DNA of 64,000 bases from an uncultured Clostridium sp. (GTDB lineage: Bacteria; Bacillota; Clostridia; TANB77; CAG-508), in assembly GCA_930990555.1 (NCBI GenBank), contig CAKNPW010000005.1, positions 3,770 to 67,769 on the forward strand. The letters run 5' to 3'. Shown here in pieces: positions 15,961 through 28,095 of the stretch. Both the position numbers and the translations under genes were made by a program. The notes beneath the pieces were generated by a model. That model did not search any database. It was not told where the DNA came from and saw only the letters and a list, made by a program, of their open reading frames with translations. Positions within the stretch are counted from its first letter, which is position 1; the number at the start of each line of letters is the position of its first letter.

Positions 15961-17589
15961 TTAGCTTAATGCTAAGCTCTTATATGAATTGCATCGTTCT
16001 CTAAACAATGCTGTATAATATGCTTTTCTTATGTTCATTGGTGCAGAATTTAATATTGTATCTAAATCTGTCGTATAATTTCCTGCCCCTGTATCTACTT
16101 CATTAGTTCCATTTGATGATGTTATCTCTGATGAAGTTACAATGCATGCATAATCTGCTGTAGCTGTACCATGAGGAAAATAATTCTTGGTTGTTCCATC
16201 ATTGGCAACATAACTTTGTGCATCAAAATCTGTATTTCTATATCCCATAATATTTCCAGATAAACTAGCGGTAAGATGCCTAACATCATGGTATTGATTA
16301 TTATTTTTATCTAATATATATATTAATTTTGGATCAACAAATTCCCTGTTTTTATTATTTGTTACAATACTATATCCCATATAATAGCCATTACCAATAT
16401 TCTGACCTTGCATAAATGAAATTAAACACGTATTACTTAATATCATACTCCACTCATTTTCTGTAAGTGTTGGCATTTTAGCTGGATGTGTAGAATTTTC
16501 ATTAAATTTTGCAATTGTTGTTTCCAAATTTGTTGTTATAGAATTTCTTATAACTTGTTGCTTATGTTGGTTAAAAGTATTTAGCATCGTTCCATCAGTT
16601 GCCCCAAAATCTATTAATGTTTGATTTGCAACATTACCTGTAATACCTAAATCTTCTTTATTTACACCTACAATGTCCCCTAAAGTAATTCCATCTAAAA
16701 TACTTCTAATATTATTAGTAAAAGTGTATGCATCCTGTAAATATTTTTGAGCACTTGTATCTTCTTGATAAGTATTCCCTAATTGGTTTCTCATATTTTC
16801 ATCTACATAATTTAAAGTGCCATCAACATTATACTTATACCATCTACTACCATCCCAATAGGCTTTTTCTCTTCTACCATTAGAATTTGTAAAATATGTA
16901 TAATTTAGTTGAGATGTTGAATTACTTTCATCTGCTGTACGATTAAATTCTGCTAAGTCTTCACTTTCTATTGAAATACTATCATATGTTGTTCCAGCAG
17001 CATTAGTTTTGGAAGTATCTATTAAAAAACCAGAATATGTTTGATAGTCATTTGCTCCATTTTTATAAAAAACTGTTATATAATTATCTAAAGTATAGTT
17101 TATTATTATATCTTTAGTTCCTTGTTTATATCTTGCAGAATAATATACATATGGTTTTAATCCAGTCGCTGATTCAGTCGAATTTAAATTTACATCAATT
17201 ACATTATTAGTTTCACCAGTTACTACATTATTATATTTTGTATATATATAATATCCATCATATAATGTATATACTAACGCTGGTATAAAACTTTGTAACT
17301 CTTCTTCTGAATAACCACTTTGTCCAAAATTTGTAGCCAAAGAATTATAAAATGTTGTTACAGATGCTTCAACATCTCTTATTTTTTCTTGTGCTATATT
17401 CTGCGTAGTACTATTTAATTCATTTATTTGGAATGCTTTTATAGCATCATAAGTTGCATTATTTAAAACAGTATCGTAATTTCCTTGTAAATTAATATAA
17501 TTTATTTGTACTTGCATATATAAAGACATTACTAATACTATTGGTATAACAATAATAGCAAATATTACTATCCAGCTTTGTAATTTCAT
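15961..17589 (-). CDS. Large pilin-like or tip-associated protein (542 aa), last gene of the pilus-like operon
   Basis: I chose the start at ATG 17589 (RBS AAAGGAA). The N-terminus MKLQSWIVIFAIIVIPIVLVMSL is a single hydrophobic helix. The remainder is N/T/S/Y-rich and predicted extracellular. Confidence 0.7.
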   Translation of the reverse strand: MKLQSWIVIFAIIVIPIVLVMSLYMQVQINYINLQGNYDTVLNNATYDAIKAFQINELNSTTQNIAQEKIRDVEASVTTFYNSLATNFGQSGYSEEELQSFIPALVYTLYDGYYIYTKYNNVVTGETNNVIDVNLNSTESATGLKPYVYYSARYKQGTKDIIINYTLDNYITVFYKNGANDYQTYSGFLIDTSKTNAAGTTYDSISIESEDLAEFNRTADESNSTSQLNYTYFTNSNGRREKAYWDGSRWYKYNVDGTLNYVDENMRNQLGNTYQEDTSAQKYLQDAYTFTNNIRSILDGITLGDIVGVNKEDLGITGNVANQTLIDFGATDGTMLNTFNQHKQQVIRNSITTNLETTIAKFNENSTHPAKMPTLTENEWSMILSNTCLISFMQGQNIGNGYYMGYSIVTNNKNREFVDPKLIYILDKNNNQYHDVRHLTASLSGNIMGYRNTDFDAQSYVANDGTTKNYFPHGTATADYACIVTSSEITSSNGTNEVDTGAGNYTTDLDTILNSAPMNIRKAYYTALFRERCNSYKSLALS

Positions 17590-17625
17590 CTTAATTCCTT
17601 TCTTTACTTTTGTAACTCTTTCATT

Positions 17626-17699
17626 ATACAAGAAATATTGCTACATATTTCTTGTATAATAAAAGAAAAAGGTGTTTTTTACAAGACACCCCTTATTTC
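17626..17699 (-). promoter_or_regulatory. Two hairpins inside the operon, ahead of the last gene: one terminator-like plus a 13-bp stem
   Basis: The minus strand reads AAGGGGUGU...ACACCUUUUUCUUUU (17699-17662), then ATACAAGAAATAT-GTAGCA-ATATTTCTTGTAT (17657-17626). Confidence 0.5.
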
Positions 17700-17706
17700 T
17701 TTTTAT

Positions 17707-18240
17707 CTAATTTCTTCCATTAACTGTAACAATTCCTCCATTTGATGCTCCTATTGTTGCAGAATCATTTCCTGTTACTCTATAGAAGAAATTTCTTAAT
17801 AGTTGAGAAATTGTTGTGTTTGTATTTTTTACATTAACAGATACAATATCTCCTTCTTTTAAGTATTTAGTATTATTGTTTGTTGCATCATTTAATTCTT
17901 CCATAATTTGTGTTGTATATTCTGTATAATACACATTTTCACCTATTTTTTCATACGCTGTTTGAGCTGTTTTCTTTCCTGGATTTTCATCTAATATTTT
18001 TACTTCTATTTCTACAACATATGTATTTCCTGTTGCATTAATTTCTTGTACAAACCTATTATAATCTGCTAATGTTATTCTTCCTGTAGAACGAATGTTG
18101 TCTACAAATGTAGTTGTACTATTTTGTACAGATAATTGTGAAACATCATCACTACGATCAGCAACTGACATTAAGGGAAAAATAAACATTAATACAGCTG
18201 CTAATACTATAGCCAAAATTGTAACTACTGTATCTCCCAT
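17707..18240 (-). CDS. Pilin-like protein (177 aa)
   Basis: The N-terminus MGDTVVTILAIVLAAVLMFIFPLMSV is a helix starting at residue 4. The gene is translationally coupled within the operon. Confidence 0.7.
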   Translation of the reverse strand: MGDTVVTILAIVLAAVLMFIFPLMSVADRSDDVSQLSVQNSTTTFVDNIRSTGRITLADYNRFVQEINATGNTYVVEIEVKILDENPGKKTAQTAYEKIGENVYYTEYTTQIMEELNDATNNNTKYLKEGDIVSVNVKNTNTTISQLLRNFFYRVTGNDSATIGASNGGIVTVNGRN

Positions 18241-26352: not shown

Positions 26353-26371
26353 TTTACTCTCCTTTTTTAGA

Positions 26372-27055
26372 TTAAATTTCTTTCATTATTTTTCTTACTG
26401 CTGGTCCTTGAAGTTTTGGATCTATTTTAGCAACTATAAATTCCATTCCATCCTTATACATACTGGTTAAGTTTTCAAATCTAACTTTTGATACCTTTTG
26501 ATTTTCTATAATTGCTGTTTTATCTCCCATTTCTAAAGGGAAATATATTCTATCATCTTCCCACATAACTTTTGAACCTAATGATAAATAATTTAAATAA
26601 TCATCGTCCTCTTTTGTAACTTCTTTTGAAAATAATACTTTTGTCATTTTAATTGGAGTTGGAAATTCATTTAAAATTTCCAACCCTCTTCTTATGTCAT
26701 ATGTATCAAAAGATGTTACGAAAAAATTCTGTACAGCTTTATCTATTTTAAACTTCATTGCACTTTCAGCATTATCTATGTCTATTAACATGTAATCATA
26801 TTCTAATGTATCTACAGTTCTATTAGTATATTCTGCTATTCCCTCTATATTTTTAAATCCAACTGCAATATCTATTTCTTCAAATTCTGTTATATAAGAC
26901 AAAGTAGGATTTAATGCTGGTACAACATACTTTGCTTTTTGAGTAATTGTTGTATCTACAATTAATACTCTTTTGCCTAATACAGTTAGAATTTTAGCAA
27001 CATAAATTAATAGATCAGTTTTATCAAAAGCTCCTACAAATCCTACTTCTTTCAT
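26372..27055 (-). CDS. Second ParA/MinD-fold protein with a degenerate P-loop, 227 aa
   Basis: VGFVGAFDKTDLL stands in place of the P-loop. KRVLIVDTT and YDYMLIDID are also present. Confidence 0.55.
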   Translation of the reverse strand: MKEVGFVGAFDKTDLLIYVAKILTVLGKRVLIVDTTITQKAKYVVPALNPTLSYITEFEEIDIAVGFKNIEGIAEYTNRTVDTLEYDYMLIDIDNAESAMKFKIDKAVQNFFVTSFDTYDIRRGLEILNEFPTPIKMTKVLFSKEVTKEDDDYLNYLSLGSKVMWEDDRIYFPLEMGDKTAIIENQKVSKVRFENLTSMYKDGMEFIVAKIDPKLQGPAVRKIMKEI

Positions 27056-27072
27056 ATTTCCTCCTATTAAAA

Positions 27073-28095
27073 TTAATTACTTGTACTTGTTGTAGTTGTA
27101 TTAGTTGTACTTGTAGCAGCCGCATCTGCTGCTGCAGCTGCATCTTCAAGTGATTGTAAATATTGTTGTCTTAATTCTTTTTGTTGTGTAATATGTTCTT
27201 CTACTGAAGACTCTAAATTAGATTTTCTTTCATCTGATTCAACACTATTTATTTGATTATTAATATAATTTTCTCTTAAGTTACGATCATATCTACTAGC
27301 TATAGCAGATTTTGCTTCATCAACGATGTTTGGATTTGAACTCATTAAGTTCAATGCTTCTGAGCTTACTGGATATGTTGGAGTTGCAGCAACTTGCATT
27401 CCAGGATCTGTATATCTTGTTACATACATTTCTACAGCTTTTAATTGGTAAAGCTCTATTATCGCACTTGACATTGAGATTGTTTCATCTTCTGATAAAT
27501 TAATACTTATTACTCCCTCTGCTGGTGCTCCTGCAATTTCTGGAATTGTTACTTGCTTTTTAGCAACTACTATGTAATCTTGACCATTACCAAAACGTAT
27601 ACGAACATCTACAAAATCGCCATCTGCTAAATCTGTTGGTAATGACAACATATTATATTCTTGTTTTCTTAAATCATTTGTAACTTGTTCAGAACTTGTT
27701 GTTAACATATCTTTAGTTAAAATTGTACCTGCTTTTAAATCTATTTTTGCAACTAAATCTGTTCTTGCTTCAGATTGGCTCTCATTAGAATAAAAGTCAG
27801 ATGGAGTTGCTACATTTGCTGGTACTACACTACTATCTGCAACTTTTTGAGTTACATTAGGTGTTCTAGATGTATCTCCTTCTACTGCAGTAATTTGTAT
27901 TCCTGAACCAGAAGCAACATCTTCTGATACAACATAAACAGTTCTTTGTGCTGCTGCTATTGCATCTTGTTCTTTCTTTAAATTAATTAATTGCATAAAT
28001 AATAAAGCTATTACTATTGCAGCAATAATTAACATTACTAACATTCCTAATAAAAATGATACTCTTTTTTGTCTTTGCATTGGATTTGAAGCCAT
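27073..28095 (-). CDS. CpaB/RcpC-like pilus assembly protein (SAF domain), 340 aa
   Basis: N-terminal TM helix, SAF-like VAKIDLKAGTILTKDML and RcpC-like LPTDLADGDFVDVRIRF. The Ala/Thr-rich tail is low complexity. Confidence 0.7.
   Translation of the reverse strand: MASNPMQRQKRVSFLLGMLVMLIIAAIVIALLFMQLINLKKEQDAIAAAQRTVYVVSEDVASGSGIQITAVEGDTSRTPNVTQKVADSSVVPANVATPSDFYSNESQSEARTDLVAKIDLKAGTILTKDMLTTSSEQVTNDLRKQEYNMLSLPTDLADGDFVDVRIRFGNGQDYIVVAKKQVTIPEIAGAPAEGVISINLSEDETISMSSAIIELYQLKAVEMYVTRYTDPGMQVAATPTYPVSSEALNLMSSNPNIVDEAKSAIASRYDRNLRENYINNQINSVESDERKSNLESSVEEHITQQKELRQQYLQSLEDAAAAADAAATSTTNTTTTSTSN

Follow-up and report, generated by a model that had tools for sequence, protein, structure and literature searches.

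A conserved operon of uncultured gut Clostridia probably encodes a Tad-derived type IV filament machine with an unusual class of pilin-like subunits

We analysed a 64,000-nucleotide (nt) stretch of DNA from an uncultured Clostridium sp. (lineage Bacillota; Clostridia; TANB77; CAG-508; assembly GCA_930990555.1, contig CAKNPW010000005.1, positions 3,770 to 67,769 of the forward strand), hereafter the window, in which an operon of thirteen genes probably encodes a filament machine related to Tad/Flp (type IVc) pili. The thirteen co-oriented open reading frames (ORFs), numbered g1 to g13, lie on the minus strand and run from window position 28095 down to 15961. They are tightly packed, with gaps of 17–75 nt, nearly all are preceded by ribosome-binding sites of GGAGG type, and GC content is uniform over the region at ~27–30%. 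A preliminary description of the locus, made from the sequence alone, had reported thirteen tightly packed minus-strand genes at 15961–28095 and read them as a Tad/Flp-like pilus operon; ORFs and gaps agree with this layout. Type IV filaments share a set of core parts, namely an ATPase, a membrane platform, a pilin with a class III signal peptide and an A24 peptidase. In the profile searches of all 13 proteins that the preliminary description had proposed, here with Pfam and NCBIfam models, the ATPase g4 alone passed a cut-off, as T2SSE, while the other 12 proteins were blank or gave sub-threshold hints only: SAF/CpaB for g1, AAA_31/Get3 for g3 and UpsA/DUF515 for the proteins of 140 amino acids (aa).

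The motor of the system is probably g4 (23545..25497, minus strand), a membrane-anchored secretion ATPase of 650 aa that scored 26.1 bits with Pfam T2SSE (PF00437; gathering cut-off 24.9). It carries the motifs GEQGCGKTT, IIGEV and FTHHA and, with them, the Walker A, Asp box, Walker B and His box that mark the ATPases of type IV filaments; among 31 diverse members of the family, G382, K383, T385, E404/E408, E450 and H476 of g4 are invariant or nearly so. Searched as a single sequence against PDB, g4 matched CpaF and nothing else (E 3e-9), and a profile of the 31 family ATPases again had CpaF as its best match (84 bits, E 5e-23), followed by FlaI (49 bits), A. fulgidus GspE2 (38), PilT (34), VirB11 (33), GspE (32) and PilB (27). 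These results uphold the earlier reading of the gene as a CpaF/TadA-like ATPase from the same three motifs, and the scores of CpaF and VirB11 do not bear out the contrary outcome considered at that stage, an ATPase of a conjugation family. CpaF is by far the closest solved relative of g4, but across a large identity gap, and g4 is no more than a candidate member of the CpaF/TadA clade.

Around its CpaF-like core (aa ~265–540), g4 has an N-out transmembrane (TM) helix and a family-specific region of ~235 aa on the N-terminal side, and a family-specific tail on the C-terminal side. The membrane anchor had been noticed before and proved general, the N-terminal TM helix being present in 31/31 diverse family ATPases. 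Likewise, nearly all of the 377 clusters at 50% identity that score E<=1e-30 with g4 are full-length (600–650 aa) and include the ~235-aa N-terminal region. The best NCBIfam match of g4 was TIGR03819, 'conjugal transfer-associated TadA', yet at 33 bits against a cut-off of 373, and the NCBIfam TadA, ComGA and VirB11 models all scored far under their cut-offs. When plasmids were searched by tblastn with g4, identity was at least 42% inside the family and at most 27% for canonical CpaF. By these sequence comparisons the ATPase family is discrete; it is also large, with 7555 homologues. The operon encodes one ATPase only, without a PilT-type retraction paralog.

Directly downstream of the motor gene lies g5 (21447..23519, minus strand), a polytopic protein of 690 aa with ~8 predicted TM helices and two conserved cytoplasmic helical domains (~141–270 and 528–650), which its position, topology and profile matches point to as the platform. 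Searches of Pfam, NCBIfam and PDB sequences with g5, the last also with platform profiles, gave no match, and the g5 model made by AlphaFold2 from a 24-sequence alignment was too poor to use (predicted local distance difference test (pLDDT) 57.8; the best Foldseek hit, E 0.67, is meaningless). By profile-profile alignment with hhalign, however, aa 132–326 aligned with eight canonical TadB/TadC proteins, taken from Tad loci of Rhizobium, Burkholderia, Pseudosulfitobacter and Streptomyces plasmids, with a probability of 77% and E 2e-5, compared to ~0.02 for reversed-sequence controls. Further evidence came from a cluster on pCBG of C. botulinum CDC_1436 (NZ_CP006909, 9584-15297), where two adjacent genes directly after the ATPase gene, at the positions that TadB and TadC occupy, match the two parts of g5: gene x matches aa 122–267 (E 4e-6) and gene y aa 347–650 (E 2e-10). 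Since each matches one half, g5 can be read as two platform genes joined, as the preliminary description had proposed for TadB and TadC. A TadB/TadC profile enlarged with the pCBG proteins gave lower E values with g5 (2e-9 and 7e-6) and was not relied on, the pCBG proteins themselves reaching only E 0.24 and 0.009 with canonical TadB/TadC.

The platform protein has 6761 homologues, and none was found in 50,697 phage records, on which ground a phage origin was rejected. In 10/81 related species (loci L002, L006, L020, L023, L028, L032, L033, L036, L047 and L078) the platform gene is split at aa ~430 into ORFs of ~435 aa and ~250–275 aa, the second in the +1 frame; the split may mark a true gene fission within one subclade or a site of repeated frameshifting.

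The first three genes supply accessory proteins. The product of g1 (27073..28095, minus strand; 340 aa) is CpaB/RcpC-like, with a predicted N-in TM anchor, an extracytoplasmic SAF domain and an Ala/Thr-rich C-terminal tail. Although the window copy alone scored below threshold (SAF E 0.01, TIGR03177 E 0.08), the SAF domain was found in 18/30 members of the g1 family (best E 7e-9) and ChapFlgA in 6/30, and hhalign of the family with canonical CpaB/SAF proteins gave a probability of 83% (E 9e-6), so the CpaB/RcpC-like SAF protein recognised earlier was confirmed. The product of g3 (25519..26352, minus strand; 277 aa) is a TadZ/CpaE-like protein of ParA/MinD fold: it aligned with CpaE/TadZ over 224 columns (probability 81%, E 1.3e-5), with weak matches to ParA (3ea0) and Get3 in PDB and to Pfam AAA_31 (E 0.0014). 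Both accessory proteins typical of Tad pili, CpaB/RcpC and TadZ/CpaE, are therefore represented, by g1 and g3. Between them, g2 (26372..27055, minus strand) encodes a short ParA-fold protein of 227 aa with a degenerate, shortened Walker A (GAFDKTD) and no Pfam match. Its family aligned with the g3 family (probability 80%, E 1.4e-5) and not significantly with canonical TadZ, and by this alignment g2 is a truncated paralog of g3, matching its N half. Two TadZ-like proteins of ParA/MinD fold had been proposed here; g3 fits this, whereas g2 reaches the g3 family only.

The preliminary description had further stated that both of these proteins lack the P-loop lysine and had counted this as a deviation from Tad systems. 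It is correct for g3, whose Walker A reads ETGQT in the window copy and ETGKT in many orthologues, but g2 keeps a lysine (G-A-F-D-K-T), and its homologue in C. argentinense retains a canonical GADRTGKSS loop. Moreover, 4/4 canonical CpaE/TadZ proteins that we fetched are without the P-loop lysine (GVGVTT, GAGAS, PGVTS/T), so its loss in g3 is the norm of CpaE/TadZ and no deviation.

The remaining eight genes each encode a protein with a single N-terminal hydrophobic helix, as had been described for g6 to g13, but the most unusual feature of these proteins, a shared N-terminus, had been missed. Five of them begin with the pattern MENA[SATV][KRNDE]AL. These MENA-class pilin-like proteins are g6 (20778..21428; 216 aa; MENASKAL), g7 (20314..20748; 144 aa; here MDNA), g9 (19325..19747; 140 aa), g10 (18877..19302; 141 aa) and g11 (18270..18857; 195 aa), all on the minus strand; in g11 an acidic residue stands in place of Lys6 (MENAVEALKM). 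In ~95% of ~300 orthologues no other start codon lies between an in-frame stop and the Met of the MENA pattern, so that a longer leader is impossible. For g6, MENASKAL stands at the first start codon after the stop in 62/66 orthologues; the Met start of g7 is shared by 83/85 orthologues and that of g11 by 61/71, the latter with the pattern MENA[AVT][DE]AL. The same holds at 12 distant loci, where most pilin-like genes are without an upstream in-frame start. g6 has only the N-terminal helix in common with g7 and g9 (16–19/28 residues identical), and residues 1–31 are all that the paralogs share. g7 aligns with the g9 family, including a Y-E-G motif.

We take g9 as the candidate major subunit. 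Its residues 1–31 are conserved at 93%, compared to 52–59% for the remainder, with residues 1–7 as invariant as the helix core. AlphaFold2 modelled it with good confidence (pLDDT 84.5) as a MENASKALIIAGAILLAILIIALG helix spanning residues 2–53, followed by a small alpha/beta head, so that the predicted 140-aa subunits have type IV pilin architecture, a likeness of architecture and not demonstrated homology. g10 is a tandem duplicate: in DNA, 237/240 positions are identical over the first 240 nt, compared to 45/60 and 49/60 in two blocks of the 3' part encoding the head, a pattern over 18877–19747 that suggests gene conversion or antigenic variation. There are 6968 homologues of g9, and the 120 best platform or subunit homologues listed carried no Pfam domain and 'hypothetical protein' as their sole source name. 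The N-termini of distant members are more varied (MGENGRKAL, MDSVTKAI, MDDNATKGL, MENLQTYLKW, MERVAGFIKD, MSNGWKLF), comprising 5–9 non-basic residues, often acidic at position 2–3, often with K-[AG]-[LIV] and without a conserved Gly, while a Y-[DEN]-G...G motif is conserved after the helix.

The other three single-helix proteins are outside the MENA class. g8 (19804..20241, minus strand) encodes a predicted single-pass N-in membrane protein of ~143 aa with no Pfam or NCBIfam match, whose orthologues start MKK... and whose true start is probably Met3 (~20235; 53/79 orthologue matches). g12 (17707..18240, minus strand; 177 aa, single-pass, conserved) starts M[GS]D... and has an FPL motif in its helix, and its homologues occur in every family member examined, among them the distant loci L081-L083 and L085-L092 and the plasmid copies. 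g13 (15961..17631, minus strand) is a large single-pass N-in/C-out protein, ~542 aa from its probable true start at Met15 (MKLQ.., ~17589; 58/73 orthologue matches), with no Pfam or NCBIfam match. Its N-terminal module of ~320 aa is conserved and common to a ~325-aa protein of plasmid clusters (11 distant homologues aligned), while its C-terminal part is variable and relatives reach 1239 aa.

Relatives of the operon are found in at least 581 species-representative genomes, and in the 80 closest, on which synteny was judged, the full order g1–g13 is kept. The nearest are gut metagenome-assembled genomes labelled Clostridium sp. or Clostridia bacterium, whose contigs reach 1.7–1.8 Mb, plus Candidatus Merdicola. 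Where the contig reaches, the flanking genes recur as well, with a HAD hydrolase at ~50, SpoIVB at ~60 and MurC at ~30 of the 80 loci; since the same housekeeping context is kept in 80 species, the operon is a vertically inherited chromosomal trait in this lineage. Identity across these genomes is ~80% for the ATPase, ~65% for the platform and 25–55% for the subunits, which points to the subunits as the fast-evolving and probably exposed parts. The preliminary description had placed the operon in a core chromosomal context with no mobile-element signatures. This stands for the lineage, but the family is frequent on large Firmicute plasmids: homologous clusters were found on 35 of them, in Paenibacillus, Lysinibacillus, Clostridium botulinum, C. 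argentinense, C. beijerinckii, Butyrivibrio, Alkalihalophilus and other hosts, with the core order SAF protein, two ParA-like proteins, ATPase, platform, one to three subunits, a g12-like and a g13-like protein.

Among known machines, the operon is most like Tad/Flp pili. Both have the order SAF protein, ParA-like protein, ATPase, platform and subunits, a single ATPase, and matching components, namely an ATPase core nearest CpaF, g1 resembling CpaB, g3 resembling CpaE/TadZ down to the P-loop without lysine, and an N half of the platform resembling TadB/TadC. The operon differs in its 650-aa ATPase with a TM anchor of its own and a novel N-terminal region, its single platform protein and its extra, truncated ParA-like gene. 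Furthermore, it has neither a 50–80-aa Flp with G/XXXXEY, nor pseudopilins with a TadE motif, nor TadV, and its subunits are of ~140 aa with a globular head. Tad clusters of actinobacterial plasmids (TIGR03819; Streptomyces sp. T12 and Microbacterium pYJNG plasmids) also run from SAF through TadZ-like, ATPase and platform genes to small subunits, likewise in a single-membrane envelope without a secretin, and TIGR03819 is the NCBIfam model nearest to g4. Unlike the operon, in which such genes are undetectable, they carry recognisable T2SSF TadB/TadC, TadE/TadG-family and small Flp-like genes.

The pCBG cluster, a separate Tad-like cluster in which no gene is annotated as pilus-related, stands closer in some respects: its two membrane proteins are the best detectable relatives of the g5 halves, and its ATPase (E 1e-16) is intermediate between the family and canonical CpaF. 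In contrast, that ATPase has 468 aa, the platform is in two genes, no SAF or ParA-like genes are annotated beside the cluster, and the subunits, three Flp-like ones of 57–77 aa and two of ~160 aa, have basic leaders ending KKGG|LS. From these comparisons, the pCBG cluster appears to be an evolutionary intermediate between canonical Tad and the g1–g13 family.

Likeness to other type IV filaments is more distant. FlaI and A. fulgidus GspE2 are the next-best ATPase matches, there are sub-threshold matches to UpsA and DUF515 (subunits) and Pilin_N (g1), and a short N-terminus that contains K-[AG]-[LIV] looks like a class III signal, all of which recall archaeal type IV pili (Epd/Ups/Aap) and archaella. 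However, these family matches stay under their cut-offs, FlaI is well behind CpaF (49 vs 84 bits), the operon is without PibD/EppA/FlaK and without a FlaJ-type signature, and the SAF and ParA-like proteins are features of bacterial Tad systems. With type IVa/IVb pilins the subunits share an N-terminal helix of ~53 residues, hydrophobic and most conserved in its first half, and a small alpha/beta head, as well as the arrangement of one major and several minor subunits and tandem variant copies of the major one. The differences are the lack of G|F(M)xxxE and of Glu5, a leader that is absent or non-basic, no pilin match by Foldseek, and a motor of Tad type rather than PilB/PilC/PilMNO. Full-text searches of the literature on Tad in Clostridia, new type IV filament families, leaderless pilins, conjugative pili of Gram-positive bacteria, pXO16, pBsph and plasmids of C. 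botulinum gave no description of this system. The survey of type IV filaments by Denise et al. (2019) mentions Tad systems new for Bacilli and Clostridia, as well as many 'generic' systems left unclassified, but none that has these features.

Taken together, we give a probability of about 70% to the reading that the operon, fixed in the chromosome here, belongs to a large and unannotated family of Tad-derived type IV filament machines in Firmicutes. This agrees with the distinct and probably undescribed branch of the type IV filament superfamily proposed in the preliminary description, and the likeness of the ATPase to CpaF, of g1 to CpaB, of g3 to TadZ and of the platform N half to TadB/TadC carries it. 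On the same sequence evidence, the type of machine would be familiar. What would be new is the class of subunit, the anchoring of the ATPase, the fusion of the platform and a possible loss of the peptidase step. Filament formation, the role of g9/g10 as major subunit, the substitution of g12/g13 for TadE/F/G and a role in adhesion are all inferred.

In such a machine, the CpaF-like ATPase g4, which has intact catalytic motifs and, unlike known relatives, is held in the membrane by an N-terminal helix of its own, would be the motor, and g5 would be the membrane platform, two platform genes in one. g3 and its truncated paralog g2 may recruit or position the motor, and g1 may form an extracytoplasmic collar through the wall. 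The five MENA-class proteins would insert N-in/C-out in the membrane, to be pulled out by the ATPase-driven platform and to stack their invariant hydrophobic N-terminal helices as the core of a filament, with g9/g10 as the major subunit and g6, g7 and g11 as minor or priming subunits. At the tip or base, g12 and g13, which the whole family conserves, might take the place of TadE/F/G, and the variable C-terminal part of g13 is a candidate adhesin. The filament would likely serve adhesion or aggregation in the gut lineage and mating-pair contact in the plasmid relatives.

Several results weigh against this reading. No filament has so far been observed in any family member. No T2SSF match was found by Pfam in 17 diverse platform homologues at E<=5, the C half of g5 aligned with the same T2SSF region at control level only (E 0.02), and no internal repeat was detected between the N and C halves at two alignment depths (E 0.44 and 0.17). 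Foldseek of the g9 model against PDB returned no match, including no solved pilin. Neither Flp nor TadE was matched by Pfam or NCBIfam among the 13 proteins, and the idea that g12, g13 and the pilin families belong to TadE/TadG was rejected, with hhalign E values of 0.04–0.27 (0.04 and 0.23 for g12) against a probability of 93.5% in a TadE-vs-TadG control. Lastly, K-[AG]-[LIV] stands right before the hydrophobic stretch in many subunits and fits an archaeal-type class III site, so that processing by an unlinked peptidase is possible.

The last point bears on how the subunits are made. The preliminary description had found no A24 peptidase in the operon or anywhere in the 64 kb, which we confirmed: phmmer with a genuine TadV finds nothing in the window, and its polytopic ORFs are assigned as AgrB, DUF2207, DAGK, NfeD, FtsK and an AgrC-like sensor. 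Two candidates were rejected, a 288-aa ORF with seven TM helices at 38669–39535 that ends in an AgrC-type H-box, and a 174-aa ORF with four TM helices upstream of g1 in one relative (locus L058) that is DUF2651. Nor was an A24 peptidase present among polytopic ORFs within ~6–16 kb of the cluster at 92 related loci (whole genomes were not searched), and none is given for the distant loci in their record annotations or precomputed Pfam domains. This absence in cis is weak evidence, because the pCBG cluster with its canonical leaders is also without a peptidase within 10 kb. The non-canonical N-termini are, from sequence, a stronger argument for independence from a peptidase: a class III signal peptide is a short basic leader ending in Gly, or in Ala/Ser in archaea, and the MENA N-terminus is neutral or acidic. 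The other absence reported earlier, that of a ~60-aa Flp gene with G/XXXXEY, also held, in that no pilin of Flp size (50–80 aa) is among the called ORFs and no Flp family match was obtained; six-frame ORFs of ~50–60 aa are overlapping or antisense and were not motif-scanned, and ORFs below 50 aa were not examined. Because the subunit N-terminus is only 5–9 residues long, non-basic and without a conserved Gly, assembly without an A24 peptidase is possible; we regard it as plausible but unproven, at somewhat less than even odds. The fuller proposal, that the MENA proteins are leaderless type IV pilins, synthesised already mature (Met1-Glu2...), that a Tad-derived motor polymerises them with no prepilin peptidase involved, and that the plasmid members supply the long-missing mating pili of Gram-positive conjugation systems, we hold to be rather doubtful.

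The main alternative is that the MENA proteins are genuine prepilins whose leader is very short (MENASKA|L) and is cut off by an A24 enzyme of PilD/ComC/TadV type encoded elsewhere, in which case only their divergence would be unusual. Unlinked prepilin peptidases serve the Tad system of Bifidobacterium and MSH pili, and the archaeal class III pattern is [KR][GA]|[LIV]. In this lineage, where each of the five paralog groups has A7 and L8 without exception, K-[AG]-[LIV] precedes the hydrophobic core in agreement with this pattern, as it does in ~8/13 first-pilin genes of distant loci. The sub-threshold UpsA and DUF515 matches of the subunits and the clear KKGG|LS leaders of pCBG, which likewise occur without a peptidase in cis, point the same way, and peptidases are often shared among systems (Denise et al. 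2019, PMC6668835). On the other hand, the putative leader is neutral or acidic with a conserved acidic residue at position 2–3, g11 has D/E at -2, several distant members are without G/A/S at -1 (MENLQTYLKW, MERVAGFIKD, MSNGWKLF), residues 1–7 are invariant like the helix core, and none of the 92 loci has an A24 gene within ~6–16 kb of the cluster. Weighing both sides, we think that this explanation falls a little short of an even chance.

A second alternative concerns function: the operon could be a domesticated remnant of a conjugation-associated pilus, making contact for DNA transfer, or for DNA uptake, as in the Tad system of Micrococcus, and not for adhesion. The plasmid copies give this some weight. 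On Butyrivibrio pCY360 (4432-24345) the cluster adjoins a VirD4-type coupling protein, PrgI and a CD1110-type VirB4, and at a metagenomic locus (L085, 83-16378) it adjoins a VirB4-like ATPase and an M23 hydrolase; these neighbours hint at a mating-pilus role of those two copies. The cluster is also carried by pBsph of Lysinibacillus, which is reported to be conjugative and to encode VirD4/VirB4/VirB6 homologues and a 'pilus assembly ATPase'. On actinobacterial plasmids, canonical Tad clusters have relaxase or wall-lytic genes as neighbours, and the best NCBIfam match of g4 is named for conjugal transfer. The 'tip' conjugation locus of pXO16 was considered as a known homologue and rejected, with zero Bacillus thuringiensis plasmids among the platform matches. 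Against a conjugative role, no VirB4, VirD4, VirB6/PrgI, relaxase or integrase was found among the window ORFs with the families checked, the FtsK present being the chromosomal one, and where plasmid relatives are flanked by such genes of a Gram-positive conjugative type IV secretion system, these form a separate module. The vertical inheritance of the operon in one housekeeping context across 80 species also argues against it, and a fast-evolving, duplicated major subunit fits an exposed adhesin or antigen. For the operon in the window we consider a conjugative origin and role unlikely.

The subunits might instead form a pseudopilus, a short piston that pushes proteins through the thick wall in the manner of a type II secretion system, since one major and three to four minor subunits resemble the pseudopili of that system and of Com. 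Possible cargo is found on plasmids, where the clusters are often followed by giant SLH and DUF5704 proteins, GGDEF proteins and wall hydrolases. At four such loci (L082, L087, L089, L090) the cluster is followed by an SLH/cell-wall-binding protein and a DUF5704 giant (~1000–1160 aa), often with a GGDEF diguanylate cyclase; the SLH/DUF5704 genes may encode a co-functioning surface adhesin under cyclic di-GMP control. None of the SLH, DUF5704 and GGDEF genes of the plasmid clusters is in the window, however, and such cargo genes are absent beside the operon both there and in the 80 syntenic relatives. In addition, the ATPase is nearest to the pilus motor CpaF, and diversifying heads and tandem copies of the major subunit suggest exposure, which makes a pseudopilus quite improbable. 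A last alternative, that signal peptidase I cuts after a conserved Q-A (Ala31) to release soluble wall or surface proteins while ATPase and platform have another role, draws on the >90% conservation of Ala31 right after the hydrophobic stretch and on two clostridial plasmids where signal peptidase I genes follow the cluster at a distance of a few kb, but it is very improbable given that residues 1–31 are the most conserved part, unlike a discarded signal peptide, that there is no net positive charge in the n-region and the hydrophobic stretch exceeds 20 residues, that AlphaFold2 gives a continuous helix of 53 residues packing on the head, as in pilins, and that the operon is without a signal peptidase gene.

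The operon is flanked upstream by a Cof-type HAD hydrolase and downstream by SpoIVB and MurC. It ends in a probable intrinsic terminator (15864..15904, minus strand), read directly from the sequence as an AT-rich hairpin of 10 bp after g13 followed by a T-run. With only two GC pairs it escaped our consensus scan, but hairpin and T-run are real and match the single terminator placed earlier at 15868–15902. The 130-nt region upstream of g1 (28096..28225, minus strand) has no riboswitch and only weak promoter-like matches (9/12 at 28196-28169 and 28166-28137), not above shuffled expectation. The best sigma-70-like match of the whole operon lies in the 72-nt gap before g8 (20281-20252, minus strand; 11/12, TTTACA-18-TATAAT, TG-extended), and it could be an internal promoter boosting the g8–g13 half, which includes the major-subunit genes.

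A few further observations were made in the window. An Rfam scan of the whole 64 kb found zero families at gathering score (tRNA, riboswitch, T-box, leader), a somewhat uncommon result for so long a stretch of Firmicute chromosome. An agr-like quorum-sensing locus lies at 37906–40879, with a LytTR response regulator (37906–38727) and AgrB (40274–40879, minus strand). Within it, the 288-aa ORF mentioned above ends just past its H-box (FKHDFNN) and looks like a truncated or frameshifted AgrC sensor kinase, judging by its sequence. Among relatives elsewhere, the cluster of Paenibacillus anaericanus (L081, 460-7185) has type VII secretion genes immediately upstream, which encode a WXG100 protein and a 1329-aa EssC-like FtsK/SpoIIIE ATPase.

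A Tad-type motor combined with ~140-aa subunits that are non-basic and Gly-less at the N-terminus, and never with a peptidase in cis, offers a direct test of whether leader cleavage is obligatory in type IV filaments. Were the leaderless pilins real, the family would be the first among type IV filaments to do without an A24 peptidase. The view that conjugation in Gram-positive bacteria needs no pili would change if the plasmid versions were mating pili. The family is large (at least 581 species genomes and thousands of homologues for each core protein) and almost unannotated in Pfam and NCBIfam. Copies lie on large plasmids of Paenibacillus, Lysinibacillus (pBsph), Butyrivibrio and neurotoxigenic Clostridium, adjoining or accompanying conjugation genes, and several of the carriers are culturable, so these questions are testable. 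Abundant uncultured Clostridia of the gut carry the family too, and in them a surface filament would matter for colonisation.

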